From Anaerolinea thermophila (lineage in GTDB: Bacteria; Chloroflexota; Anaerolineae; Anaerolineales; UBA4823): a DNA stretch of 62,973 nucleotides. The translations under genes were made by a program, and so were the position numbers. Shown here one piece after another: positions 6,897-57,355 of the stretch (positions are counted from its first letter, which is position 1; the number at the start of each line of letters is the position of its first letter). The stretch covers positions 1 through 62,973 of the forward strand of contig DYGV01000003.1 in NCBI GenBank assembly GCA_020724505.1. Direction: 5' to 3'. The notes under the pieces are model-generated. The model was given only the letters and a program-made list of their open reading frames with translations. It was not told where the DNA came from and did no database searches.

Positions 6897-8600
6897 CTAT
6901 ATTCTCTCCATCAAACGATAAGTGGTCAGAATTTGTTCGTAAGGGTAGTCGAATTCAATGGTGCAAAAATAGCCCGGCGGACGTTCGTCCATCAGGTCTA
7001 ACGGAATTAACCCGTCCCAGGAATAGGCCAGTTGCGGAAATGCCCCGCGCCCCACCGTGCGAATAGCGGTCACGCCGCATGCGCCACATTCCGCTGCGAA
7101 CTGCAAAAACTCATCCCCCAACGCTTGCCCTGGCTCTCCCATCGCTACGCTCAGAGATTGCAAATTCTCTTTGGGGATCAAACGTAGATACCTGCGTGGG
7201 ATATCCATCCGGTGCGCCACAGGGCGGACGACGATGACACGCCCCTGGCAATCATTGACCTGTTGACGGAAGGCGGCTGCATCCAGCGGACGGCGATCCA
7301 GGATGACCAGAAATTCATCATCGTAATCCGAAAACACCTTGGTCAGGCCGACGCGCTCCAGGTTTTTGTAACGGTCGAAACGCTCATGTAACAGCCGGCG
7401 CGGCCAGCCGCCCAACGGCAACCAGGCGGAGAGATGATGCAACTGACCCAGCAAGCAGTGGGCGTAATCCTCGGCGTTTGCATCTTGCCCAGCGCGTTCC
7501 TCAACAAAATGCACCCGCGCAGATAGACAACCGTTTTGGTCCCAAAGGATTGAATCCAACGCAGCCAGGCGGGCGGCAATCTCCATGCTCGATTTACCGC
7601 TGTCTGGGTCGCCCTCTGCGCTGGTTAGCATTTCGGCGCCTATAGCCGAGAAACTTACCTTATGACCATGGGCATGAAAACGAAGGGGGTGCTTCGCGGG
7701 CGGGCGAGCGCGCCGGGCAGCGTCAAATTGCCGACGCAGGTTGACAATGGTCTCATCACTGGCCGCGGCAATGACCAGGTCGGCGCGGCTCAATAGGTCT
7801 CTTTGCAGCGCCTGATCCTCAAAATCCCAGACCAACAGCGCGGTGGTACACAGCAAGTCAGGGTCTGCTTCCTCCATCGCTTGCAACACGAGCGGACTGA
7901 AGATTGGTTCATGCCGCGAATTACGCACGATGATGACTGGCATGGCAGCAGATAAAGCAATCGCCTGCGCCAGCAGCGCAATCAACAGCGCCGCCCCAGG
8001 CACATTGCCCGCGCCATAACCGATCACTACTTGGGGAGGTGCAGAACGCTCGTAAATGGGGCGTTGTGACAGAATCGGCGACCGGCTATAAATCTCACGC
8101 CAGGGTTGTTGCGAGAAAAAACGCGCTCGGCCAGGAAGGCCTGACATCGGCTGCCACTTCTCGATTGCCTGCCAGGTGGGAGTAAATGAAAACGTTGCAG
8201 GCAATTGATCCAGAGAGAACAAATCCAAAGCTCGCAGCGCCAGGTGGATCATGGCCGGCGAGTAGCCGGTATAGCCCGGCAAAGTCTGGATTGCCCGCTG
8301 GTGGAGGGGATTAGATGGGTCAGCCAGGCGGCGGCCGGCATGATTGATCGCCGCCTGGAAACGCCGCCAGAAGTCGCCACCCTTCGGCGGTAGAGAACAA
8401 TTACGCTCCAAAGATTGCAAAAGCGCAGCCCATTGCCGGCTGTCCAGGCGCGGCCAGCGAGCGGTCACCGCGCCAGGAGCTTGCACTGAAGCCGGCTGCC
8501 CATTGACGAAGGTTCGTTCCTCGAATTCGGTTTCGGGCGTCAATATGGCGTCACGAACCTGCCGCGGCAACCAGAAACCTTCTATAGGGGGAACAGTCAT
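6897..8600 (-). CDS. LuxC-like acyl-CoA (acyl-enzyme) reductase, aldehyde-forming, with a long N-terminal extension
   Basis: ALDH-like GYGAGNVPGAALL motif and a candidate nucleophile in WDQNGCLSARVHFVE. The start is placed at ATG 8600 (MTVPPIEG...), 16 nt after the LuxE-like stop. The track start at 8645 would overlap the upstream gene by 29 nt. Confidence 0.65.
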   Translation of the reverse strand: MTVPPIEGFWLPRQVRDAILTPETEFEERTFVNGQPASVQAPGAVTARWPRLDSRQWAALLQSLERNCSLPPKGGDFWRRFQAAINHAGRRLADPSNPLHQRAIQTLPGYTGYSPAMIHLALRALDLFSLDQLPATFSFTPTWQAIEKWQPMSGLPGRARFFSQQPWREIYSRSPILSQRPIYERSAPPQVVIGYGAGNVPGAALLIALLAQAIALSAAMPVIIVRNSRHEPIFSPLVLQAMEEADPDLLCTTALLVWDFEDQALQRDLLSRADLVIAAASDETIVNLRRQFDAARRARPPAKHPLRFHAHGHKVSFSAIGAEMLTSAEGDPDSGKSSMEIAARLAALDSILWDQNGCLSARVHFVEERAGQDANAEDYAHCLLGQLHHLSAWLPLGGWPRRLLHERFDRYKNLERVGLTKVFSDYDDEFLVILDRRPLDAAAFRQQVNDCQGRVIVVRPVAHRMDIPRRYLRLIPKENLQSLSVAMGEPGQALGDEFLQFAAECGACGVTAIRTVGRGAFPQLAYSWDGLIPLDLMDERPPGYFCTIEFDYPYEQILTTYRLMERI

Positions 8601-8616
8601 CTTGCACCCATTTGGC

Positions 8617-10050
8617 TCAAATTTGGGCGGCGCATCCCGCCTCATCCAACAAATCTACGCGTTGGATAGAACCTTGGGCGATGTATGCCCCGGCTTCCCC
8701 GCAGGGGCAATCCAACGCCGGATCATAAGCGGTTGACCCATTCACCAGGCGCATTTGGTCAGCCGTCTTAAAAAAGGCAGGGATAAGATCGCCGCCGCCT
8801 TGTGGGTCAAAGAAAGCCAGTATGCCGGTCGCATCAGGGGCAATCTGAAAGCGGTCATCTGCATCTAATACCGCTACATAGACCCAGGGCGGAATGTGAT
8901 AATTGCCCGCTGCGCATTGCATGGCAGCCCAGTTGGCCTCCGCCATGCCATATACATCTCGCACCGGCGCCGGCTGTCCATCCGTCGTGCGCACGCTCTG
9001 CGCCAGATCGTGACGGATCTGTTCGGGAACAGAAGGATAAAACTCTTTGAAACCGCCTCCGGTACCCAACAAGCTGCCGGGTGGCAGTTGCAAAACCCTC
9101 TTCTGATCGCGCAGCGTCAAAGCGACAGCATGCAAATGCACCCACGAGGCAAAGAGCAAAATCTTTGCCCCATCAGCCTCTGCCTGCAGCAATAAATCCA
9201 CCGCCCGGCGAACCGCCTGTGGAGATACTGTATGCTCATTCATCCAATTCATGAAAGGGTTGAGCACGCGGCGCTCCAGCCAACCTTGCCAGCCAGGGCG
9301 GTAAGCGCGCCCGCTGCGAATACGCACCTGGTCTGGATAAGCCGGGAAAGGGATGGTAAAGAAGGTATTTTCCGGCGGCACGCCAACCTGCCGCAGGCTA
9401 AAACCGACCATGCGCGCCATGGCAATGCGCGTTTGGCGGGGCATGATAAAGATCGCCCGATGATCCAGTTGCATCCCAAAATAACGCTGAAAGCACAGAT
9501 AAAAACTCTCGACCGTGCGCTCGATCGCCCGTTGATCGCGCGCCAGGATTGTCGAGCGGCCAGAGGTGCCGCTGGAGGTGAGGATCTCGATGCCCAAGTC
9601 GGCATAGAGGCGTTCGATGTCTTGTAGCAACGCTTCTAAAGACGGATACCGATCTTTCAATTGTCCAATCCGCTCGGCTGGCGCGCGATCGGCCATCGGA
9701 TGAATCGAGAGATGATCTAACAACCAGGCCATGAAACGACGCGGCTGATCTTGCGGGAAGGGCGTCCCCAGAATGTCTATATACGATTTGAAAGTCTGAG
9801 AGGTGGGGCGTAAAAGACGCGGTAAATCTTGCAGGCTGATTTCTGCGCCAATCTTGCGCGCCGCAAGGGCGTCGTGATAAGCCGGGTTATGCATGAAATG
9901 CCAAGCATGCGAAGCCTGAATAGCCTGGAACAGGATTTCTGGCCGAGATGGGGGTGGAATTTGCCAAAAATCCGCTAATTGAAGCTGCTTGCCGGAACCG
10001 CGCAACCGCCGTTCAACAGTTTCTTCTACTCTAATCATCGCCTCACCCAT
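8617..10050 (-). CDS. LuxE-like acyl-protein synthetase (adenylate-forming, PaaK/LuxE superfamily)
   Basis: P-loop-like LTSSGTSGRST motif typical of LuxE/PaaK-type adenylating enzymes. A cysteine lies 6 residues from the C-terminus (GCAAQI). The gene is immediately upstream of the LuxC-like gene. Confidence 0.65.
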   Translation of the reverse strand: MGEAMIRVEETVERRLRGSGKQLQLADFWQIPPPSRPEILFQAIQASHAWHFMHNPAYHDALAARKIGAEISLQDLPRLLRPTSQTFKSYIDILGTPFPQDQPRRFMAWLLDHLSIHPMADRAPAERIGQLKDRYPSLEALLQDIERLYADLGIEILTSSGTSGRSTILARDQRAIERTVESFYLCFQRYFGMQLDHRAIFIMPRQTRIAMARMVGFSLRQVGVPPENTFFTIPFPAYPDQVRIRSGRAYRPGWQGWLERRVLNPFMNWMNEHTVSPQAVRRAVDLLLQAEADGAKILLFASWVHLHAVALTLRDQKRVLQLPPGSLLGTGGGFKEFYPSVPEQIRHDLAQSVRTTDGQPAPVRDVYGMAEANWAAMQCAAGNYHIPPWVYVAVLDADDRFQIAPDATGILAFFDPQGGGDLIPAFFKTADQMRLVNGSTAYDPALDCPCGEAGAYIAQGSIQRVDLLDEAGCAAQI

Positions 10051-34408: not shown

Positions 34409-35485
34409 TCACAACTTCACCTCGATGCCCTCGCCATCAACTACTTCGCCGACCGCCCACAACGGTTGTCCCACTTGCGCTGCACGCTCCAGCAGCCCGG
34501 CCAATCGCTGCGGCGGGACGGCTAAAAGCAGCCCGCCGCTGGTCTGAGCGTCGAACAGCAGCATTTGAGAGGCTTCATCTATCCCCGGCGCAAAGCGCAC
34601 CCGCGAGCCATAGAACAATTTATTATCTGCCGAGCCGCCGGGAAAGATCCACTCCTGAGCGTAACGCTGCGCGCCGCGCGTGAATGGAATGCGCTCGAAG
34701 AAGAAGCGCAAGCCAACGCCCGAAGCCTCCGCCATTTCCAGGCCATGTCCCAGCAGGCTGAAACCGGTGACATCCGTCCCGCCGCGCAGCTCAAATTCTA
34801 CCGCCAATTCACTGGCCTGCCGGTTGAGCCGCTTCATCCATCCTACTGCTTCAGCTACATCGGACGGATCAGCCAGCTCGCGCTTTAACGCCGTCGTCAC
34901 TGTCCCAAAGCCTAACGGTTTGCTCAACACCAGCGCGTCGCCGGGCCGCGCGCCGTTCTTCGTTAAAATACGCTGCGGATGGACGAAGCCCAATACGATC
35001 AGACCGTATTTAGGCTCTTTATCCTGCACCGTATGCCCGCCGGCCAGCGCCACGCCCGCTTCGCGCGTCTTTTCCGCCCCGCCGCGTAGAATCTCGGCGC
35101 TGATTTCTGTAGGCAAATCGGGGGGCAGGGCGGCGATATTCAGCGCTAGGAACGGCCGTCCACCCATCGCGTACACATCCGAGAGCGCGTTGGCAGCAGC
35201 GATCGCCCCATAGTCATATGGATCATCCACAACCGGCGTGAAGAAATCGGTTGTGGCGATCAAGGCGCGCTCGTCGTCTAGCCGCCACACGGCGGCGTCA
35301 TCCGCCTCGCCCAGCCCCACCAACAGGTTGGGATAATCTTCGGAGCGGAATAGACCTTGTAGGGGGCGCAGCACCTGCGCCAGCGTCTCCGCGTTGAGCT
35401 TGGACGCTCAACCAGCGCAACTGGAGAGGCTGGTCAGGCGGATCTGTCTCCCTGAGGTGGCTCGGATCTGGCTCTCAGAATTCAT
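34409..35485 (-). CDS. selD: Selenide, water dikinase (selenophosphate synthetase), selenocysteine-containing form (TGA codon 26 at 35408-35410)
   Basis: The track ORF (34409..35374) starts at an internal GTG and lacks the catalytic N-terminus. The same frame read upstream through TGA gives MNSESQIRATSGRQIRLTSLSSCAG-U-ASKLNAETLAQVLRPLQ..., matching the SelD IRLT...GAG(C/U)..K motif. The rest is clearly SelD (AIR-synthase fold: DFFTPVVDDPYDYGAIAAANALSDVYAMGG). Confidence 0.85.
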
Positions 35486-41215: not shown

Positions 41216-41653
41216 TCACCGTTCTATCCAGATCGTCACTGGGCCATCGTTGGCAATTTCCACCAGCATGTGCGCGCCAAACTCGCCGGTTTGCGTGGGC
41301 ACGCCCTGGGAGCGCAGCAAATCGGCAAAGCGCTCCACCAGCGGACGGGCAACCTCCGGCGGAGCGGCGTCGGTGAATGAAGGGCGGCGGCCCTTGCGCG
41401 TGTCGGCGTACAACGTAAACTGCGACACCACAATGGCCGCCCCGCCTACCTCCAGCAGCGAGCGGTTGATCTTGCCCTGCTCGTCCTCAAAGATGCGCAG
41501 GTTGGCGATCTTTTCCGCCAGATATTGCGCCTGTTCCTCACCATCCTGTGGCCCCACTCCCAGCAAAATCACCACGCCAGGCCCAATCTCTGCGATCACC
41601 CGCCCTGCAACGCTCACCCGCCCGCTGCGCACGCGCTGTAATACTACCCGCAT
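41216..41653 (-). CDS. dtd: D-aminoacyl-tRNA deacylase
   Basis: MRVVLQRV... N-terminus and the [17 protein letters not shown] motif. 145 aa. Confidence 0.9.
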
Positions 41654-41662
41654 CCTTGCAAC

Positions 41663-42664
41663 CTACATCAGAGGCAAACCAATGGCTTCTTTGACTTCGC
41701 GTATCGTCTGCCGGGCAATGGCGCTGGCGCGTCGCTGCCCATCGCGCAGCACATCCCATACATAATTGGGGTCTTTGCCCAACTCTGCCCGCTTCTGGCG
41801 GAAGGGTGCCAGGTGGGCGTTCAGGTTGCGGGCAAAGAGCTTCTTGCAGTCCACGCAGCCAATGCCTGCCCGCCGACATTCCACATCCACCATTGCAATT
41901 TCATCCGGCGAGGAAAACACCTTGTGCATGGTGAATACATTGCACACATCTGGGTTGCCGGGATCGCTGCGTTTGATGCGCGCCGGATCGGTGACCATCT
42001 GCATCACGCGCTGGGTGGTCTCCTCCGGCGTAGCAGCCAGCTCAATGTGGTTGTTCAGGCTTTTGCTCATCTTTTGCACGCCATCAATGCCCAGCACTTT
42101 TGGCGTCTCGGTAGCAATCATCTGCGGTTCGATGAGTACGTTGGTGTTATAGCGGTAGTTGAACGAACGCACCGTCTCGCGCGCAAACTCTATATGCGGT
42201 TGCTGATCCACGCCTACCGGCACCAAATCGCTCTTATACAGCACAATATCGGCGGTCATCAACACTGGGTAACCCACCAGCCCGTAATTGACATTGTGCG
42301 GCTGCTGGCGCGCCTTCTCTTTGAAGGTGGGCAGGTCGGTGAGCTTGCCCAACGGAGTGACCATCGAGAGATAGGTGTGCAACTCGGTCACCTCCGGTAC
42401 CTGCGATTGAACGAATAAGATCGTCTCGACGGGACGAATGCCAATCGCCAGCCAGTCGAGCGCCATCTCGTAAATATTCTGCCGCAGGTTCTCGGTGGTC
42501 TCCACTGTAGTCAAGGCGTGGATATCCACGATGCAGTACACGCACTCGTACTCATCCTGCAAAGCCACATAATTCTTGATAGCGCCCAGGTAGTTGCCCA
42601 AATGTTGGCGACCTGTTGGCCGCGCGCCGGAAAAGACGCGCCCTTTTTTCATCACCTCTGCCAT
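41663..42664 (-). CDS. trpS: Tryptophan--tRNA ligase
   Basis: Class I motifs (SGARPTGRQHLGNYLG as the HIGH-type region, KMSKS) and overall TrpRS sequence. 333 aa. Confidence 0.95.
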   Translation of the reverse strand: MAEVMKKGRVFSGARPTGRQHLGNYLGAIKNYVALQDEYECVYCIVDIHALTTVETTENLRQNIYEMALDWLAIGIRPVETILFVQSQVPEVTELHTYLSMVTPLGKLTDLPTFKEKARQQPHNVNYGLVGYPVLMTADIVLYKSDLVPVGVDQQPHIEFARETVRSFNYRYNTNVLIEPQMIATETPKVLGIDGVQKMSKSLNNHIELAATPEETTQRVMQMVTDPARIKRSDPGNPDVCNVFTMHKVFSSPDEIAMVDVECRRAGIGCVDCKKLFARNLNAHLAPFRQKRAELGKDPNYVWDVLRDGQRRASAIARQTIREVKEAIGLPLM

Positions 42665-42915
42665 TAACGACTCTCCTGAAGATACTGTTTCACCAGGGCG
42701 TTCACCTCGCCCGGCTCGGCGTGCCGCCCGGTGCGATGCTTCGAATAGACGAGCTTATCGTTGATGGAAAACTCGAAGCGCCCGCCGTGGGAGGGGATTA
42801 AGGTGAACGATTCGATCTCTGTTTCATATTCCTTGAGCAATTCAGCCACCAAACTGATGGCGCGGTCGGTGTAATGTCAAACCACGCAGTATTCCAAAGA
42901 TAACTTCATTTTCAT
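42664..42915 (-). CDS. SelW/Rdx-family selenoprotein, CxxU motif (TGA codon 13 at 42877-42879)
   Basis: AGGAGG-N5-ATG at 42915. Translation: MKMKLSLEYCVVUHYTDRAISLVAELLKEYETEIESFTLIPSHGGRFEFSINDKLVYSKHRTGRHAEPGEVNALVKQYLQESR. The track shows only the part after the TGA (42664..42852, TTG start). The stop TAA overlaps the trpS ATG (TAATG). Confidence 0.8.
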
Positions 42916-42965
42916 TTCGACCTCCTGCATTGTATAGAATTTCAGGTTTTGCCTGCTATGTCTTT

Positions 42966-42998
42966 AAAAAACCACCCCGCCGGTGATGCGACGGGGTG
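42966..42998 (-). terminator. Rho-independent terminator (expression platform of the T-box leader)
   Basis: Minus-strand RNA CACCCCGUC-GCAUCACC-GGCGGGGUG (9-bp stem including one G-U) followed by GUUUUUU. It ends about 50 nt upstream of ATG 42915. Confidence 0.75.
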
Positions 42999-43287
42999 AA
43001 TGAGCCAGCTCCACTCTCATCGAGTACGGGGATCTCCGCTCCAGCGCAACCCTGACAGCGGTTTCCCTTATACCCTTTGCCCAGATAACGGCGGCAACTC
43101 CGGCGCAGACTACTGGATCCTGGCATATCTCGAACCAGATCGTTCATCCTGCAGCTCCGAGGGCCATTCGGCGCCGGCGCGCGGGCGGGACTTTCACCTG
43201 AACCGCTCTCTGTGCCGCCGCTTCGACGCGTACTCGTCCTCTTCACAGCTTTTCACAATAAAGATGAGGCAGCGGAGAACTCCGCGC
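42966..43287 (-). promoter_or_regulatory. T-box riboswitch leader, Trp specifier (UGG at 43164-43166)
   Basis: Hand-folded Stem I (43153-43250, about 25 bp). GA/K-turn AGCU-GUGAA-GAGG paired with CCUC-GG-AGCU, S-turn GAGUA, AG bay ACAGAGA, distal loop UUCAGGUGAAAGUC and specifier loop GAA-UGG-C. The layout parallels the glyQS Stem I (GAAG-AAGAGUA ... GAA-GGC-A-CUUC-GA-GC). The terminator is at the 3' end and trpS is in the downstream operon. The canonical 14-nt T-box/antiterminator core was not mapped cleanly; the best candidate is AGAGUGGAGCUGG at 43005-43017. Confidence 0.7.
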
Positions 43288-43293
43288 CAGAAT

Positions 43294-43322
43294 AGTTTAG
43301 CCGAAAGCGGCTTGGGTGTCAA
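43294..43322 (-). promoter_or_regulatory. Candidate sigma70-type promoter for the T-box operon
   Basis: Minus-strand TTGACA (43317-43322), 17 nt, TAAACT (43294-43299). Confidence 0.45.
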
Positions 43323-43556
43323 TGATTTTGCTCTTTGTGAAATAAAGAACACAGCCTCTCTAGCACATCAAAGCTCGAGCGAAATCAATTCGGCGCAATC
43401 CGCTGGAGCACCGCTCATTCCCGATCCAGATTGTGCTAAAATCAATCTAGGCCGTTGATGAGGCGGGAATCGCCCGCTGTCACGCGGCATCCTGGAAAAC
43501 TGTGCTCAACATCCATTATCCGTGTTTCGCCTGTAATCAATGCAAGGAAGGGGAAG

Positions 43557-44429
43557 ATGCGTAACTCGCTCGACATCCGTCCCTCGCCCATTGCCGGGCA
43601 GTGGTACCCGGCGGACCCAAAACGTCTGGCTGCTCAAGTTGACCGCCATCTGGATGAAGCCCGCTTGCCGCCATTGCATGGCGAAGTAATCGCCGTTATG
43701 GCGCCCCACGCCGGGCACATCTACTCCGGACCAGTGGCAGGATACGCCTTTGCCGCACTGCGCGGCATGTCGCCGGAGATTGTGGCTGTAGTTTCGCCTA
43801 TGCATTATCCCTACGTCGAACGGTTGCTCACCACCGCTCACGATGCCTACGCCACCCCCTTGGGCGTGATCCCGGTGCATCGCGAGGCTTTGGAAACGCT
43901 GGACGATTACCTGCGCGACCTGCTCGGTTTTGGTTTGGCGGCTGTCAGCCACGACATGGAACATTCGCTGGAGATCGAACTGCCGTTCTTGCAACGCGCC
44001 CTGGCCGCGCCCTTCACCCTGTTGCCTGTAATGATGCGCGACCAGAGCGAAGCCACCGCCCGCGGCCTGGGAATCGCCCTGGCTCGTCTGGTCAACGAAA
44101 GCGACGCGTTGCGTGGACAAAAAATGATCCTCGTTGCCAGCACCGACCTTTCGCACTTCTACGATCAGGAAACAGCCCAGGCGCTGGACAGTGAAATGCT
44201 GCGCCGTGTGGAAGCCTTTGACCCCGCGGGGGTGATACGGGCGGAGGAAGAAGGCGAAGGGTTCGCATGTGGACGTAGCGCCCTGGCAGCAGTAATGTGG
44301 GCAGCGCGCGAGTTGGGCGCTAACCGGGCGTATGTGCTGCGCCACGCCACCTCCGGCGATGTCACAGGCGATTTTGATCGCGTCGTAGGATATGGCGCAG
44401 CAGTCTTCTTACGAGAAAGACAGACTTAA
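43557..44429 (+). CDS. MEMO1-family protein (AmmeMemoRadiSam system protein B-like)
   Basis: Trimmed to ATG 43557 after a GGAAGGGGA purine tract. IAGQWYP...VIAVMAPHAGHIYSGPVAGYAF, typical of the MEMO/AmmeMemoRadiSam B family. Confidence 0.8.
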   Translation: MRNSLDIRPSPIAGQWYPADPKRLAAQVDRHLDEARLPPLHGEVIAVMAPHAGHIYSGPVAGYAFAALRGMSPEIVAVVSPMHYPYVERLLTTAHDAYATPLGVIPVHREALETLDDYLRDLLGFGLAAVSHDMEHSLEIELPFLQRALAAPFTLLPVMMRDQSEATARGLGIALARLVNESDALRGQKMILVASTDLSHFYDQETAQALDSEMLRRVEAFDPAGVIRAEEEGEGFACGRSALAAVMWAARELGANRAYVLRHATSGDVTGDFDRVVGYGAAVFLRERQT

Positions 44430-49129: not shown

Positions 49130-50779
49130 CTACAAAACAGACACCGCTTGCGCCAGGGCACGACGGAAACCAGCCCGTTCAAAATGCCGCCGCCAAGCAT
49201 CCCGAAACGAGGCCATCAAACGGTGGCGCTCGGCGTGGCAGAAAGCCAGATAATTCACCACTTCTTCGATATTCCGCCGCTCATGGATTGGCAAGGCGGC
49301 TTGTTGACTCTCCCACTGCTCAATAAACTGACCCAGAATTTGCGTTGCCACTTGAGCGTCGTTCAGGTCGCCCAGATGATCCTGAAGCAGTTTCAACTCA
49401 TTAATCACATACCTGGTTTGCTTACCTAAAACTTCCTCGAAGTATTCCAACGTATAGCGCAATTTCTTGAACTCGATGCGCAACATATGCAACAGTTCGA
49501 TCGGCGCGTCTTTCAAGAAAGGAGCAAAGGCGCGCGTTTCAGCCAGGCGAGAGTAGATTAAAACCGGCGCAATTTCAGCCACCGTTTGAGGGGTAGGCTG
49601 TCCAGCGGGGATCGGTCGCGCTCCGACACCAGGAGTATGCAAAAAGATATTAAACTTGCGTTTGAACTCCATGTAAGCCTTACTATCCAACACCTTCAAC
49701 ATCTCTGTCCGAGCTGCCTCGCGTTCGGCTTTCCAATGATCTAACAGAGGGTTCAGTCCGTCGCGGCGTTCCTCCGGCAACGACTGGGCGTAGCGTTGGG
49801 CTTTCTCCATAAAAACATCTAAATCGCGCACCGTCCCCAGGGCGCGGCCGACAGCCTGCAACCCGCGTCGAAAAGGCTTCAGCGCGCCGGGTTCAAAAGC
49901 CTCTGCGAAAACCTGCATTGCAGCTCGCAAACGGCGCGTGGCGACGCGCATATCATGCAAAGCTTCGATGTCCTCTCCCTGGCGTGTGCCCGCCTCATGG
50001 CTTAGCATACGGGCAAAGTGAAACAACATCACTTTGCGAGCCGCCTCCGCCACTGCGTCTTTGGATTGCAAACCCATTTCTTCTCTCGGCTCTGGGAAAG
50101 GTAGAAGTCGGAGTGCAGCCTCCTTCGATTCTAAGACCTCCACTGTGGGATAGCCGATTTTAACCCACAGGCGCGCGCTTTGCTGCGCGGCGACTGCATC
50201 CGCCGCGGCATTGGGTCCATCTACCACAATCCACAAACTGCTTTCATGAGGTTCAACTTTCTGGATTACCGTGCTTCCGTCGCCGGAATTGCTCAAACCC
50301 GCTGCAATGCGTAGCAAGGCGGCAATCGTCAGAACCTGCCGCGCTTGTTGGGGAGACAAATCCAGGCGTGGTATTTCCTTGCGTTTGAGCCTGCCTTGAT
50401 GATACGCCAGAACCACCGCCAGGGTATATTGATCCTGCTCCGAGAGTTGCTGCGCAGTTTTCGCGCGCGCGAATTCAAGCGCCGCACGCAGCGGGTGCCT
50501 CCTGGCATGGGGAAAGGTGTCGGCGTGAAATTGAGCCGCGAGGCTCAAGATCAAACGACTATCATTTTGCAAATCATGTAAAAAACGGGTGCCATCAAAG
50601 ATGGCCAGCGCCAGCTCGCGCAGGTAACGCGCCTGCTCCCCATCCGCCAACTCCATCTGCGCCTCAGTAGGGCTGCCGGGCAGCTCAGCCGCCAGACGCA
50701 GGCTATCATTGAGCGTTTCGGGCGAGGCGGCGTCGGTATTCTGCGGCGCCGATCCAACGGGCGCGCCATGCGAATTCAT
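49130..50779 (-). CDS. CHAD-domain protein with an N-terminal helical domain of unclear function
   Basis: The C-terminal half has CHAD-type His/Arg-rich helices (HDMRVATRRLRAAMQVF, LHMLRIEFKKLRYTLEYF, LQDHLGDLNDAQV). Trimmed to ATG 50779 to avoid overlap with the ppk1 stop. Confidence 0.75.
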   Translation of the reverse strand: MNSHGAPVGSAPQNTDAASPETLNDSLRLAAELPGSPTEAQMELADGEQARYLRELALAIFDGTRFLHDLQNDSRLILSLAAQFHADTFPHARRHPLRAALEFARAKTAQQLSEQDQYTLAVVLAYHQGRLKRKEIPRLDLSPQQARQVLTIAALLRIAAGLSNSGDGSTVIQKVEPHESSLWIVVDGPNAAADAVAAQQSARLWVKIGYPTVEVLESKEAALRLLPFPEPREEMGLQSKDAVAEAARKVMLFHFARMLSHEAGTRQGEDIEALHDMRVATRRLRAAMQVFAEAFEPGALKPFRRGLQAVGRALGTVRDLDVFMEKAQRYAQSLPEERRDGLNPLLDHWKAEREAARTEMLKVLDSKAYMEFKRKFNIFLHTPGVGARPIPAGQPTPQTVAEIAPVLIYSRLAETRAFAPFLKDAPIELLHMLRIEFKKLRYTLEYFEEVLGKQTRYVINELKLLQDHLGDLNDAQVATQILGQFIEQWESQQAALPIHERRNIEEVVNYLAFCHAERHRLMASFRDAWRRHFERAGFRRALAQAVSVL

Positions 50780-50814
50780 GATCGCTTTCTCCTTCGATAA
50801 ATCCAATGAGCAGA

Positions 50815-52974
50815 TTAGCCCTTCGAGCGCTGATGATATTGCAACAGCCACTCCTGGGGGTTCAGAGGCAGCTCGTCGGCTGCGGGTTCAAGGCGGCGGT
50901 AGGAGCCATCTTTTTGCATCAGGCGCACTTTCACATTTGCGTTCAGATAGGTTTGCAGCACATCATCGCGCAGATAGCGCACCAAACGAGGGTCTTGAAC
51001 CGGGAAGAGCACTTCTACGCGCCAGTTAATGTTGCGTGGCATCAGATCAGCGCTGCCCAGGTAAACTTCCTCCCTGCCGCCATTACAAAAATAGTAAATG
51101 CGGCTATGCTCCAAAAAACGCCCCACCACGCTGATCACGCGAATGTTCTCGCTCACGCCGGGAATGCCCGGACGCAGACAACACATCCCGCGCACAATCA
51201 AATCCACCCGCACCCCGGCTCGCGAGGCGCTATACAGTTTTCGAATCATACGCGGATCCACCAGAGCGTTCATCTTAAAAATCAGGTGTCCACAGCCGCC
51301 GTTTTTCTGTTGCTCGATCTCGCGATCAATTAGCTCGTCCATGCGGCTACGCAAGTTCACCGGAGCAACTAACAGTTTGCGATAATCTTTTTTGGCAGAA
51401 TAACCGGTGAGGTAATTGAACAGGTCGGTGGCGTCTGCGCCTATTTCCTCATCCGCAGTGAACATGCCGATATCTTCATAGAGCTGAGCGGTCACCACGT
51501 TATAGTTGCCGGTCGCCAGGTGAATGTAACGGCGAATATGCTCTCCCTCCTTGCGCACCACCAGGGCAATCTTCGAGTGCGTTTTCAGCCCAAGCAGTCC
51601 ATAGATGACATGCACCCCCTCTTTCTCCAACGTTTTCGCCCAACCAATGTTACTCTCCTCATCGAAGCGTGCTTTGAGTTCCACCAGCACAGCCACTTCT
51701 TTCCCGTTTTCGCGCGCTTCGAGCAGCGCATCTACGACGGGCGAGTTACGCCCCACGCGATACAGGGTCTGTTTGATCGCCAACACGTCTGGATCGCGGG
51801 CCGCCAGCTTGAGAAACTCCACCACCGGCTTAAAGGAGTCGTATGGATGATGAACCAATATATCTTCCTGACGGATGGTCGTAAACAAGCTGCTGTCGCG
51901 ATAATCGTGTCTCAAAGATATGGGAACGGTAGGTCGCAAAGGTGGATCTTTGAGATCCGGCCGATCAATGTTGTACAAAAGCATTAAATCGCTCAGCCCT
52001 AAGGGCCCATCCACGGTGTACACATCGCGACGATCCATTTCCAGATTGGCGATCAAGATTTCGCGCATGCGCGTGGGCATGGCATCATTCACTGTCAGGC
52101 GCATCACAGAGCCGAAACGGCGTTGCCGCACCACCTGCTCAATGGACTCGAGCAAGTCGCCAGCCTCCAACTCCTGGATCACCATGTCTGCATCGCGCGT
52201 CACTCGAAATGGATGCGCCTCGACGATCTCCATACCGGGGAAAAGCTTATCCAGGTTTGCTGCTACGACCTGCTCCAGCCAAACAAAATAATGATGCTGC
52301 GGCGGCGTGCCGTCTTTGCGCAAACCGCCGGAGGAGCGCTTGATGGGCAATAAACGCGGCAAGGTCTTGGGCACTTTGACGCGCGCAAAGCGTTCCTGCC
52401 CGTTCTCATCCCGAATCGCCACGGCCAGATTCAAGCTCAGGTTAGAGATGTGTGGAAAGGGGTGCCCAGGGTCGAAGGCTAACGGCGTGAGCACCTTAGA
52501 CACAACTTCTTCAAAGTACTGATCCACATTATCTTTCTGCCGTGGAGTGAGCTGCTCGTAGTTGAGCAGATGAATGCCGGCTTTATCCAATTGTGGCAAA
52601 AGTTCATCGCGCAGGCACTCGCGCGCCTGTGTCATGAGCTGCAAGGCGACTTTGCGGATTTCCGCCAGGGCGCGGGCTGGCGGCGTTCCATCGGCGGGTA
52701 AATCTATCACGCCGGCATCCACCTGTTTGCGGATGCCGGTGGCGCGCACCATGAAAAACTCATCCAGGTTCGAACCCACGATGGAGATGAATTTCACCCG
52801 TTCGAGCAGGGGGTTGCTTGGATCTTGCGCCTCTTCCAGCACGCGGCGATGGAATTCCAGCAGGCTCAGCTCACGGTTGATGTAAAGCTGCGGGTCTTGC
52901 AAATCTATGTCTAACTCAGAGGCCTCATCCAGGCTCTTTGTCGCTTCCTCCATAGCTATCTCCGCGCCGTTCAC
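50815..52974 (-). CDS. ppk: Polyphosphate kinase 1
   Basis: 719 aa with the PPK1 N, head and two PLD-like C domains (…LYINRELSLLEFHRRVLEEA…, …THSKIALVVRKE…). The start could also be the internal MEEATK. Confidence 0.9.
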   Translation of the reverse strand: MNGAEIAMEEATKSLDEASELDIDLQDPQLYINRELSLLEFHRRVLEEAQDPSNPLLERVKFISIVGSNLDEFFMVRATGIRKQVDAGVIDLPADGTPPARALAEIRKVALQLMTQARECLRDELLPQLDKAGIHLLNYEQLTPRQKDNVDQYFEEVVSKVLTPLAFDPGHPFPHISNLSLNLAVAIRDENGQERFARVKVPKTLPRLLPIKRSSGGLRKDGTPPQHHYFVWLEQVVAANLDKLFPGMEIVEAHPFRVTRDADMVIQELEAGDLLESIEQVVRQRRFGSVMRLTVNDAMPTRMREILIANLEMDRRDVYTVDGPLGLSDLMLLYNIDRPDLKDPPLRPTVPISLRHDYRDSSLFTTIRQEDILVHHPYDSFKPVVEFLKLAARDPDVLAIKQTLYRVGRNSPVVDALLEARENGKEVAVLVELKARFDEESNIGWAKTLEKEGVHVIYGLLGLKTHSKIALVVRKEGEHIRRYIHLATGNYNVVTAQLYEDIGMFTADEEIGADATDLFNYLTGYSAKKDYRKLLVAPVNLRSRMDELIDREIEQQKNGGCGHLIFKMNALVDPRMIRKLYSASRAGVRVDLIVRGMCCLRPGIPGVSENIRVISVVGRFLEHSRIYYFCNGGREEVYLGSADLMPRNINWRVEVLFPVQDPRLVRYLRDDVLQTYLNANVKVRLMQKDGSYRRLEPAADELPLNPQEWLLQYHQRSKG

Positions 52975-55490: not shown

Positions 55491-56870
55491 TTACTGGCTG
55501 CCTTGAAGAATCTCCGCCGTTCCAGCCGCCTGGATGGCTTTCAATTGCGCCTGGCGCGCCAGATCGGTGGCTTGGGCCAGGATGCGCAACGCTTCCTCCG
55601 GGTTGTGGAAACCCATGCTGTTTTCGGCGGCGATGAAGTCCCACATCATCTGCGCCTGGCGATGCAAGCTGCGCGCCTCATTCAATAGCTCCTCATCCAC
55701 TCCAGAGACGGCGGAAGCCTTTTGGATAGCCTGAATGGCGGCGATCAGGGCGTCTTCCGTGGCGTCCATTGTGGCGCGCACGCCATCCTGGATGATTTTG
55801 ACCCGTTCTACCACATAGCCGGTATCGGTATGACAGGCTCCACAGGCTGTCTCTGGGTTGAGCAATGGGCTGTGGACATCATGGTTGGAAAACTTTGCTG
55901 CACCCTGGCGCACATAAGGCATGTGACAATCGGCGCAGGCCACACCAGCTTTGTAGTGTGTGCTGTCGGCTGTGTAGAACTCATATTCAGGATGCTGCGC
56001 CTTGAGCATTGAGGTCTTCGAATCGGGATGCTTCCAATCTTCGAATTTCGATTCCTCGTAGTAAGCCAGGATATTTTCGATCTTCGTGCCTTTCGCCCAC
56101 GGGAAGGTAAGGTATTTGCCCTCGCCCTGGAAGTAATATTCCACATGGCAATTCGCGCATACCACCGTGCGCATCTCCTGGCGGGTGAAGGTGCGCCAAT
56201 CCTTGCCTTGCGCTTTCAGCGCTTCCTCGAGCGCTGGGTTGGTCACCACCAGCTTCATTGTGCGTGCATCGTGACAGTTTGCGCAGCCAATGGGTTCGGT
56301 GATCTGCCGGCCAAGCTCCATGAAGGGCGTCTTGAAAAACTCGGCAGGTCCCATCTTTTTCCACAAGCTGGGGTTGTTAGCCGACTTGCACGAATAGCAC
56401 GTGCCGGGGGTAGTTTCATTGACGCGTTGGGTAGCGCGCACATCTTCCAGGCTCTTCAAATGGCCGCGCTCTTCGTTGTAATCTTTGCTAAAACCATAAC
56501 CGGCAAAAAGCTGCACCAGGCGCGGGTCTTGCTCCAGCTTGGAATATGGATCCGATCCGCCATAGGTGGTGCGAACGTTGTTGGTCTCGGTTTTTAACAA
56601 GGTGGTATATTGATTGGGAAAGTTGACTCCCCAATTGGCTGAGTTCGGGTCCATGTCGGCGATTTCCTGGATCGGGATGACGCCGCGCGTTGGCTGCGGC
56701 TGGCTTTTCATGAAAAGCAACACCCCAATCAGCGCTGCTGCGAGGACAACAATAATCCCACTAAGCACCCAAATCAGCTTCGAAACGCTCGTTTTCTTTT
56801 CCGGCTCAGGGGTCTTCATTGGTTTAACCGGCTCAATTGGCTGAATATCATCTTTCTCTTCTTCGCTCAT
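55491..56870 (-). CDS. nrfA: Pentaheme cytochrome c nitrite reductase (ammonia-forming), membrane-anchored
   Basis: Trimmed to ATG 56870 (ATGA overlap with the nrfH stop). Active-site CxxCK (CYSCK) plus four CxxCH motifs (CANCH, CANCH, CADCH, CGACH). Confidence 0.9.
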   Translation of the reverse strand: MSEEEKDDIQPIEPVKPMKTPEPEKKTSVSKLIWVLSGIIVVLAAALIGVLLFMKSQPQPTRGVIPIQEIADMDPNSANWGVNFPNQYTTLLKTETNNVRTTYGGSDPYSKLEQDPRLVQLFAGYGFSKDYNEERGHLKSLEDVRATQRVNETTPGTCYSCKSANNPSLWKKMGPAEFFKTPFMELGRQITEPIGCANCHDARTMKLVVTNPALEEALKAQGKDWRTFTRQEMRTVVCANCHVEYYFQGEGKYLTFPWAKGTKIENILAYYEESKFEDWKHPDSKTSMLKAQHPEYEFYTADSTHYKAGVACADCHMPYVRQGAAKFSNHDVHSPLLNPETACGACHTDTGYVVERVKIIQDGVRATMDATEDALIAAIQAIQKASAVSGVDEELLNEARSLHRQAQMMWDFIAAENSMGFHNPEEALRILAQATDLARQAQLKAIQAAGTAEILQGSQ

Positions 56871-57355
56871 TTGTATTCCTCCGAATGCTGGTAGGGTAAA
56901 ATCGAAAGACCGCGTTCGCCATGCGCCACGCTGCGATGGCACTCGAAACAATATCGTCCTGAATCCTGACGGGTATAGCCCATCTCCCAATCCAGATTGA
57001 CGATCGTGGAAGCATGGCAGCGAATACAATTCTCCTGAACGACTCTGCGGGAGGACTCCTTGGCGCGAATGGCGTCCGGTATATCCCCTAAGAGAAAGGC
57101 GCTAACGTGATGGTATCCAGATAGCGCTTTGACGTAATACTTCGGGATGAGGGCGTGCGGGGTATGGCAGTCGTTACAGTTTGCCCATTGCTTGTGCCCG
57201 CCGTGGTACCAACTCTCATACACATTGTCCATCACATGGCAGTTGTTACAGGTAGTGGGGTTATTGCCCAGGTAGGCGGTAAAGTCCGTAACATATAGCC
57301 CCACGCCAACCACCGCAAGCAGAGCCAGCCCAGCGATCAACAGTGCAATTTTCAT
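56867..57355 (-). CDS. nrfH: Tetraheme NapC/NirT-family quinol dehydrogenase
   Basis: N-terminal TM helix and four CxxCH motifs (CNNCH, CNDCH, CIRCH, CFECH). Confidence 0.9.
   Translation of the reverse strand: MKIALLIAGLALLAVVGVGLYVTDFTAYLGNNPTTCNNCHVMDNVYESWYHGGHKQWANCNDCHTPHALIPKYYVKALSGYHHVSAFLLGDIPDAIRAKESSRRVVQENCIRCHASTIVNLDWEMGYTRQDSGRYCFECHRSVAHGERGLSILPYQHSEEYK

Follow-up and report, generated by a model that had tools for sequence, protein, structure and literature searches.

We examined a stretch of 62,973 nt of Anaerolinea thermophila DNA (GenBank assembly GCA_020724505.1, contig DYGV01000003.1, positions 1 to 62,973; hereafter the window), in which a minus-strand reading frame interrupted by an in-frame TGA lies directly upstream of the genes trpS and dtd. 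Direct translation of this frame (42915..42664) gives MKMKLSLEYCVV, the TGA, HYTDRAISLVAELLKEYETEIESFTLIPSHGGRFEFSINDKLVYSKHRTGRHAEPGEVNALVKQYLQESR and a stop, i.e. a product of 83 residues in which selenocysteine (Sec, U) would be residue 13, directly 5' of the sequence HYTDRA. The predicted coding sequence (42664..42915, minus strand) was assigned to a selenoprotein W-like (SelW-like) protein of the Rdx family from its translation and from matches in Pfam, NCBIfam and PDB. It ends in TAA (42666..42664) and carries a TGC codon for Cys10 (42886..42888), the first residue of a CxxU motif, and the UGA corresponding to Sec13 (42877..42879). A Shine-Dalgarno (SD) sequence, AGGAGG, was read directly at 42921..42926, followed after 5 nt by the ATG (42915..42913), just as a sequence-only reading of the window had described, and the same arrangement is also present in the relatives L001, L006 and L009.

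The mechanical list of open reading frames (ORFs) holds only a piece of this gene, 62 aa in length and starting at TTG (42664..42852). It had been proposed from the letters that the frame extends upstream of this piece through the TGA, and translation bore this out; gene callers shorten the selenoprotein gene because the Sec codon resembles a stop. TGA is the terminator of 16 of the 43 long ORFs in the window, selD included, and the genetic code is therefore the standard one.

Profile and PDB searches were run on the 83-residue product with U written as C. The Pfam Rdx model (PF10262) matched at 65 bits against a cut-off of 22.6 (E 7.4e-18), with residues 5-76 aligned on profile positions 2-73 of 74, so that the family membership suggested by the sequence-only reading holds and the match covers the CxxU region. 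The NCBIfam model TIGR02174 (CXXU_selWTH) matched at 53.8 bits, above its curated score (cut-off 34.2), and both matches run across the TGA. The top NCBIfam model was NF041051 (SelTWH_Campy, a SelT/W/H (seleno)protein equivalog), which aligned over its full length to residues 6-75 with 73.2 bits; this is below the equivalog cut-off of 88, and the product is therefore a relative of the Campylobacter equivalog and not a member. Among proteins of solved structure, 3DEX (SAV_2001), 2FA8 (Atu0228) and 2P0G (a Vibrio SelW-related protein) were homologous over nearly the full length (E 2e-9 to 4e-6). These proteins differ in being about 105 aa long, in carrying CxxC instead of CxxU and in coming from Actinobacteria and Proteobacteria. 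Residues C10-V-V-U13 align with C-T-Q-C in 3DEX and 2FA8 and with C-R-Q-C in 2P0G, both cysteines of the solved motifs sitting opposite C10 and U13, which is the redox position at which C-V-V-U had been placed from the letters. A thioredoxin-like fold of the SelW-like protein is presumed from homology to these structures.

Six homologues were found in a collection of 5.8 billion proteins, and all of them were 60-65 aa long, began after the TGA column and were without the N-terminal 20-odd residues that hold the active site. Public pipelines give such shortened calls the name 'selenoprotein W-related protein', so what goes missing is just the N-terminus that bears the redox centre. The description of the gene as unannotated is thus right for that N-terminus and wrong for the family, which was already recognised.

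To follow the TGA beyond the window, the DNA of relatives was examined at the loci of the six short homologues, four loci from reference metagenome-assembled genomes (MAGs) and four more distant loci. Together these gave 13 distinct sequences from Anaerolineales/Chloroflexia MAGs and metagenomes, with protein identities of 52-95%. Tyr-Cys-x-(Val/Thr)-TGA-(His/Arg)-Tyr was observed in frame in all 13, with an SD sequence and a start codon located 9-13 codons upstream of the TGA, and in alignments with CxxC homologues the TGA column falls on the second Cys. Upstream of the TGA, codons vary synonymously among the relatives (TAC/TAT, TGC/TGT, GTT/GTC, TTG/CTG/CTT), the codon for Cys10 being TGC or TGT in all of them. 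Counted over all pairs, the six upstream codons showed 68 synonymous and 79 non-synonymous codon differences, and the corresponding counts downstream of the TGA were 230/173 and 545/437; the upstream ratio is close to the downstream one, so that a coding constraint of the same kind acts on the upstream codons. Metagenomes from sludge, rock, the subsurface and bioreactors yielded independent DNA assemblies in which the sequence, TGA included, is identical, and the TGA is also retained in a metatranscriptome contig from a ~90%-identical relative. The conservation upstream of the TGA on which the sequence-only reading had leaned was therefore found, with the relatives keeping both the TGA and the upstream peptide and distant homologues having Cys. 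Because a hidden Markov model match spans the stop, and because the TGA column and the upstream peptide are conserved, the frame across the TGA is, as judged from these alignments, more than chance. Within this set, locus L007 (59..70) has an in-frame TAA at codon 3 (ATG CTT TAA ATC...), a codon that reads GAG in L010, the relative nearest to it; an error of sequencing or assembly, an alternative start or a dead copy of the gene could each account for this.

A family-wide exhaustive search with the 70 residues after U as the query returned 217 proteins at E<=1e-3. The best 150 of the 217 matches were mostly 57-66 aa long, with alignments beginning at query residue 7-13, as is typical of truncated Sec forms. 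Of 31 longer matches inspected, about 17 had a true CxxC and nine had CxxW (P0018, P0019, P0020, P0022, P0039, P0105, P0107, P0111 and P0118, found in a 50%-identity library). The DNA of one CxxW entry (L015) has TGA as the codon in question, and the deposited protein does not follow from it under translation table 11; the Trp thus stems from a gene call with a code-4-type table (UGA = Trp) and is artefactual. The approximately 17 distant homologues with Cys at the Sec column carry it within one continuous ORF, and the gene of a Cys-type homologue has different neighbours, adjoining DsbA-like and thioredoxin genes. Two proteins at the top of the search were rejected as repeat-derived spurious matches that do not belong to Rdx: P0007 (2371 aa, 23 stretches), with no Pfam match, and P0071 (1569 aa), an adhesin with Cna_B repeats.

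Downstream of the UGA lies a hairpin resembling a selenocysteine insertion sequence (SECIS), GCCAUCA-GUU-UGGUGGC (42845..42861, minus strand), which was seen in the minimum free energy (MFE) fold and has a 7-bp stem beginning 15 nt past the UGA and a GUU triloop beginning 22 nt past it. Covariation was tested on an ungapped alignment of 9 distinct sequences, with column shuffles and slid controls. RNAalifold gave the same helix on this alignment, 94.4% of the cells were paired (14-54% in the slid controls) and compensatory changes were observed in four of eight pairs, e.g. A-U to G-C and C-G to U-A. Of 500 column shuffles, just one matched the observed covariation score. Synonymous third positions are linked in two of the covarying pairs, and none of the nine sequences departs from the codons that form the GUU loop, AGU (Ser) and UUG/UUA (Leu). 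In more distant relatives the sequence at this place differs, and a 7-bp stem with a G-first triloop is seen again, shifted in register by 4 nt, as in L013 (CCGGGCC-GUG-GGCCUGG). The bSECISearch model reportedly uses a spacing of about 16-37 nt and a G within the first two loop positions. In the literature, bacterial SECIS elements are marked by a conserved G in a small apical loop 3' of the UGA (PMC1088965; PMC1794560), a hallmark that the hairpin at 42861..42845 shows.

The sequence-only reading had favoured another hairpin, CACCGA-N13-UUGGUG, as the SECIS. This pairing is present in the window and was rejected, being paired in 68.5% of cells over the nine sequences with 273 of 500 shuffles as good; the GCCA/UGGC stem that had been named as the alternative proved to be part of the covarying 7-bp hairpin.

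The window also contains selD (selenide, water dikinase; 34409..35485, minus strand), itself a selenoprotein gene, as had been noted from its sequence. Its UGA (35410..35408) is residue 26, at the position of the catalytic Cys, in the context ...IRLTSLSSCAG-TGA-ASKLN..., and with U written as C the product matched TIGR00476 at 368.9 bits (cut-off 125). The TGA is kept in relative L001, and the gene is truncated both in the ORF list (321 aa) and by JGI (313 aa). MFE folds of the window and of L001 gave a SECIS-like hairpin, GGCGCAG-GUG-CUGCGCC (35365..35381, minus strand), with a perfect 7-bp stem and a GUG loop from 33 nt past the UGA, the loop in L001 being GUU. The selD and SelW-like hairpins share this design, as expected if one SelB serves both. 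Since SelD would itself need Sec, working Sec decoding would be implied.

The gene following the SelW-like frame encodes tryptophan--tRNA ligase (trpS, 41663..42664, minus strand; TIGR00233, 295 bits), and its ATG overlaps the selenoprotein stop as TAATG (42662..42666). The third gene of the unit, dtd (D-aminoacyl-tRNA deacylase; 41216..41653, minus strand; TIGR00256, 174 bits), is conserved downstream in relatives. We observed the selenoprotein gene directly upstream of trpS in 10 distinct relative loci, and the order selW-like, trpS, dtd was kept down to 52% identity. Junctions were compared in 9 distinct loci (the window and eight relatives, including L005, L007, L008, L010 and L011), and a stop/start overlap (TAATG or ATGA) was found in eight of the nine. 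An exception was L012, where trpS is missing at this place and dtd stands next to the selenoprotein gene.

Upstream of the selenoprotein gene is a spacer of 540 nt that holds a leader and a terminator. In a sensitive Rfam scan, the leader (43070..43255, minus strand) matched the T-box family RF00230 from Stem I to part of Stem III with 47.9 bits (E 1.9e-9). This score is below the Rfam gathering score of 93 bits, so that a default Rfam scan misses the element, and relatives scored similarly (47-52 bits). The specifier position reads GAA-UGG-C, UGG being the Trp codon and cognate to the downstream trpS, and a matching T-box with the same specifier was found in L001/L009 and L006. Between the T-box and the selenoprotein SD sequence, a terminator scan and the MFE fold placed an intrinsic-terminator hairpin of 11 pairs followed by a U-run (42972..42999, minus strand), which is kept in L001, L006 and L008 (in L008 the terminator part was seen). 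Just 5' of the terminator is a conserved CUGGCUCAU, in which UGGC would be able to pair with a 3' end reading GCCA. Neither constrained folding nor comparison with L001, L006 and L008 revealed a canonical antiterminator with a UGGN bulge, and the 3' part of the RF00230 model was left unaligned in the window match; as no canonical antiterminator could be drawn, membership in the T-box family is established only in part. No T-box match was obtained in the more distant loci L010-L013, L016 and L017, and some of them have promoter-like sequence directly upstream of the gene.

A promoter-like site, TTGACA-17-TAAACT (43294..43322, minus strand), was found by a consensus scan only, in which 1 site was observed against 1.2 expected, making it a weak candidate. 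The metatranscriptome contig mentioned above, 1449 nt in length, begins just downstream of this site, at the equivalent of 43248, and extends across the leader and the selenoprotein gene as far as 41790 in trpS, which fits with all three being on one transcript. Several ORFs overlap the leader region (43255..42966): one of 96 aa on the minus strand (42956..43246), one of 152 aa on the plus strand (43000..43458) and a 38-aa gene called by JGI in L001 (5850..5966). All three are probably spurious.

With the frame, the family match, the conservation of the TGA and of the upstream peptide, the covariation of the hairpin, the Sec-type selD and one RNA contig observed as above, we consider it highly probable that the locus encodes a genuine SelW-like (Rdx) selenoprotein with a Cys10-Val-Val-Sec13 centre, in which Sec is inserted at the UGA and whose gene is carried on a T-box-trpS-dtd transcript. 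The selenoprotein gene would be the first cistron of this transcript, preceded by the Trp-specific T-box leader and followed by trpS and dtd. Translation would begin at the ATG at 42915, and the hairpin GCCAUCA-GUU-UGGUGGC, from 15 nt downstream, would recruit SelB with Sec-tRNA(Sec) to the UGA (42879..42877). Sec would then be inserted and the ribosome would go on to the TAA at 42666..42664, yielding what is most likely a small thiol/selenol oxidoreductase with a Cys-Sec selenenylsulfide as an intermediate of its cycle.

Several observations weigh against this interpretation. The stability of the hairpin as a single sequence is unremarkable (z -0.17 to -0.69 in the window), and single-sequence folding energies overall gave no support, with z of only -0.2 to -1.9. 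Some of the covariation falls in codons with changing amino acids, so that protein constraint contributes to it, and an Rfam search around the gene returned no match to a SECIS family, giving only weak chance matches caused by the terminator. A partial Pfam scan of the ten largest unassigned ORFs of the window did not reveal selA or selB, and ARAGORN and Rfam found only a tRNA-Arg in the window and no tRNA-Sec (selC). The metatranscriptome contig is an assembly from a ~90%-identical relative and could contain DNA. Sec insertion, SelB binding and the redox chemistry are processes that we infer from the sequences.

One rival explanation takes the TGA as a true stop, with a 12-codon upstream mini-ORF and a 62-aa protein from the TTG at 42852 as the real product. 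This is what mechanical ORF calling and all six database homologues (60-65 aa) give, and it does without Sec insertion. Such a protein, however, would be without the entire CxxU/CxxC centre, the defining feature of the family, and without the first beta-strand, and both the profile and the PDB alignments cross the TGA. A true stop also does not fit the conserved Y-C-x-[VT]-TGA-[HR]-Y, in which the Tyr, Cys and Val codons change synonymously, the placement of the strong SD sequence and ATG at 42926..42913 instead of before the TTG, or the Cys found at the TGA column within one unbroken ORF in distant homologues, and we regard it as very improbable. A nonsense mutation in a former Cys-type Rdx gene that is now decaying would likewise leave a TGA in the frame, and the extra in-frame TAA at codon 3 of L007 could be taken in its favour. 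The same TGA was nevertheless present in the 13 distinct loci, at up to about 45% protein divergence and with the rest of the frame intact, and the constant operon position, the presence in RNA and, except for the L007 TAA, the lack of frameshifts or relaxed constraint in relatives make a pseudogene scarcely credible.

The UGA might also be read without Sec, either because the code has been reassigned (UGA = Trp or Gly) or by a near-cognate tRNA-Trp or tRNA-Cys, giving a CxxW or CxxC protein. The nine relatives deposited as CxxW and the placement of the gene in a trpS operon speak for this possibility. Reassignment is contradicted by the standard use of TGA in the window, where it closes 16 of the 43 long ORFs, selD among them, and the CxxW entries are gene-calling artefacts that are not obtained from their own DNA under table 11, as the TGA in L015 illustrates. 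A Trp in the CxxC redox centre would moreover be inactive, and plain read-through does not explain a covarying hairpin at SECIS distance or a Sec-type selD. Decoding of this codon without Sec therefore appears to us most unlikely.

As a SelW-like selenoprotein, the product resembles the bacterial CxxU proteins described by Zhang, Gladyshev and co-workers in its size of about 80 aa and N-terminal CxxU, in the coding-region hairpin that follows the UGA and has a G in its small apical loop, and in the outnumbering of Cys forms by Sec forms among close relatives. It differs from them in its Anaerolineales lineage and in its place in an operon, downstream of a Trp T-box and with an overlap onto trpS. 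In Sargasso Sea data the bacterial SelW-like family was the most abundant selenoprotein family, with 48 genes and a CXXU motif (PMC1088965), and it was reported to have very few Cys homologues in Sec-using organisms (PMC1794560). The same 2006 survey lists Chloroflexi with only 3 selenoproteins in 3 families (PMC1794560, Table 2). Mammalian selenoprotein W (SELENOW) shares the Pfam family, the CxxU position and a presumed thioredoxin-like redox role, whereas the eukaryotic SECIS has another structure and lies in the 3' untranslated region (PMC1088965, Fig. 7), and the element here lies in the coding sequence 15 nt past the UGA. With the E. coli fdhF-type SECIS/SelB system, the mechanism of which is set out in PMC1794560, the locus has in common a hairpin within the ORF right after the UGA and a conserved G(U) in a small apical loop. 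The sequence of the hairpin is unrelated to that of fdhF; it has a GUU triloop on a 7-8 bp stem as the predicted SelB target. The leader is like the T-boxes of aminoacyl-tRNA synthetase genes (RF00230) in its Stem I motifs, cognate specifier and terminator before the first cistron, and differs from them in having half the gathering score and in a first cistron that is a selenoprotein gene rather than a synthetase gene.

Bacterial SelW-like selenoproteins have been known since 2004-2006, and Sec-aware pipelines already handle such genes. As the family has been known for two decades, the result is mainly an annotation correction: the start of the selenoprotein gene should be moved out to 42915, with codon 13 read as Sec, and selD needs an extension of the same kind. 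The users of SelW-like selenoproteins and Sec-type SelD also come to include the Anaerolineales, a group abundant in metagenomes of sludge, the subsurface and bioreactors. In the literature on Anaerolineae selenoproteins we found no paper describing this gene, and nothing specific was found in that on trpS T-boxes of Chloroflexi.

The less ordinary feature of the gene is its conserved first-cistron position in a Trp-T-box/trpS/dtd operon, for which we found no description. It is a rare contextual clue to the function of the Rdx family, and we offer it as a lead and not as a result. That the placement behind the Trp T-box with the overlap onto trpS is functional and not incidental seems to us unlikely, and the arrangement may be mere synteny within Anaerolineae. 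If it is functional, the placement could couple the synthesis of TrpRS (and Dtd) to successful Sec decoding, as the roughly 210 nt of mRNA between codon 13 and trpS would go untranslated after termination at that codon, which could cause polarity or a loss of translational coupling. tRNA-Trp is the main near-cognate misreader of UGA, and the placement could alternatively tie the enzyme that charges this tRNA to a gene with UGA recoding. A further possibility is that TrpRS, or the quality control of aminoacyl-tRNAs, is a target of the Rdx protein.

The divergent neighbour of the leader region (43455..44429, plus strand) encodes an AmmeMemoRadiSam system protein B of the MEMO1 family and is followed by CNNM/CorC and priA genes, an arrangement kept in L001-L003. 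Elsewhere on the minus strand of the window, two adjacent genes (6897..10050) have domain matches to a LuxC-like acyl-CoA reductase and a LuxE-like acyl-protein synthetase, a polyphosphate kinase 1 gene adjoins a CHAD-domain gene, and a gene for cytochrome c552 (NrfA-type nitrite reductase) was also observed (49130..52974 and 55491..57029).

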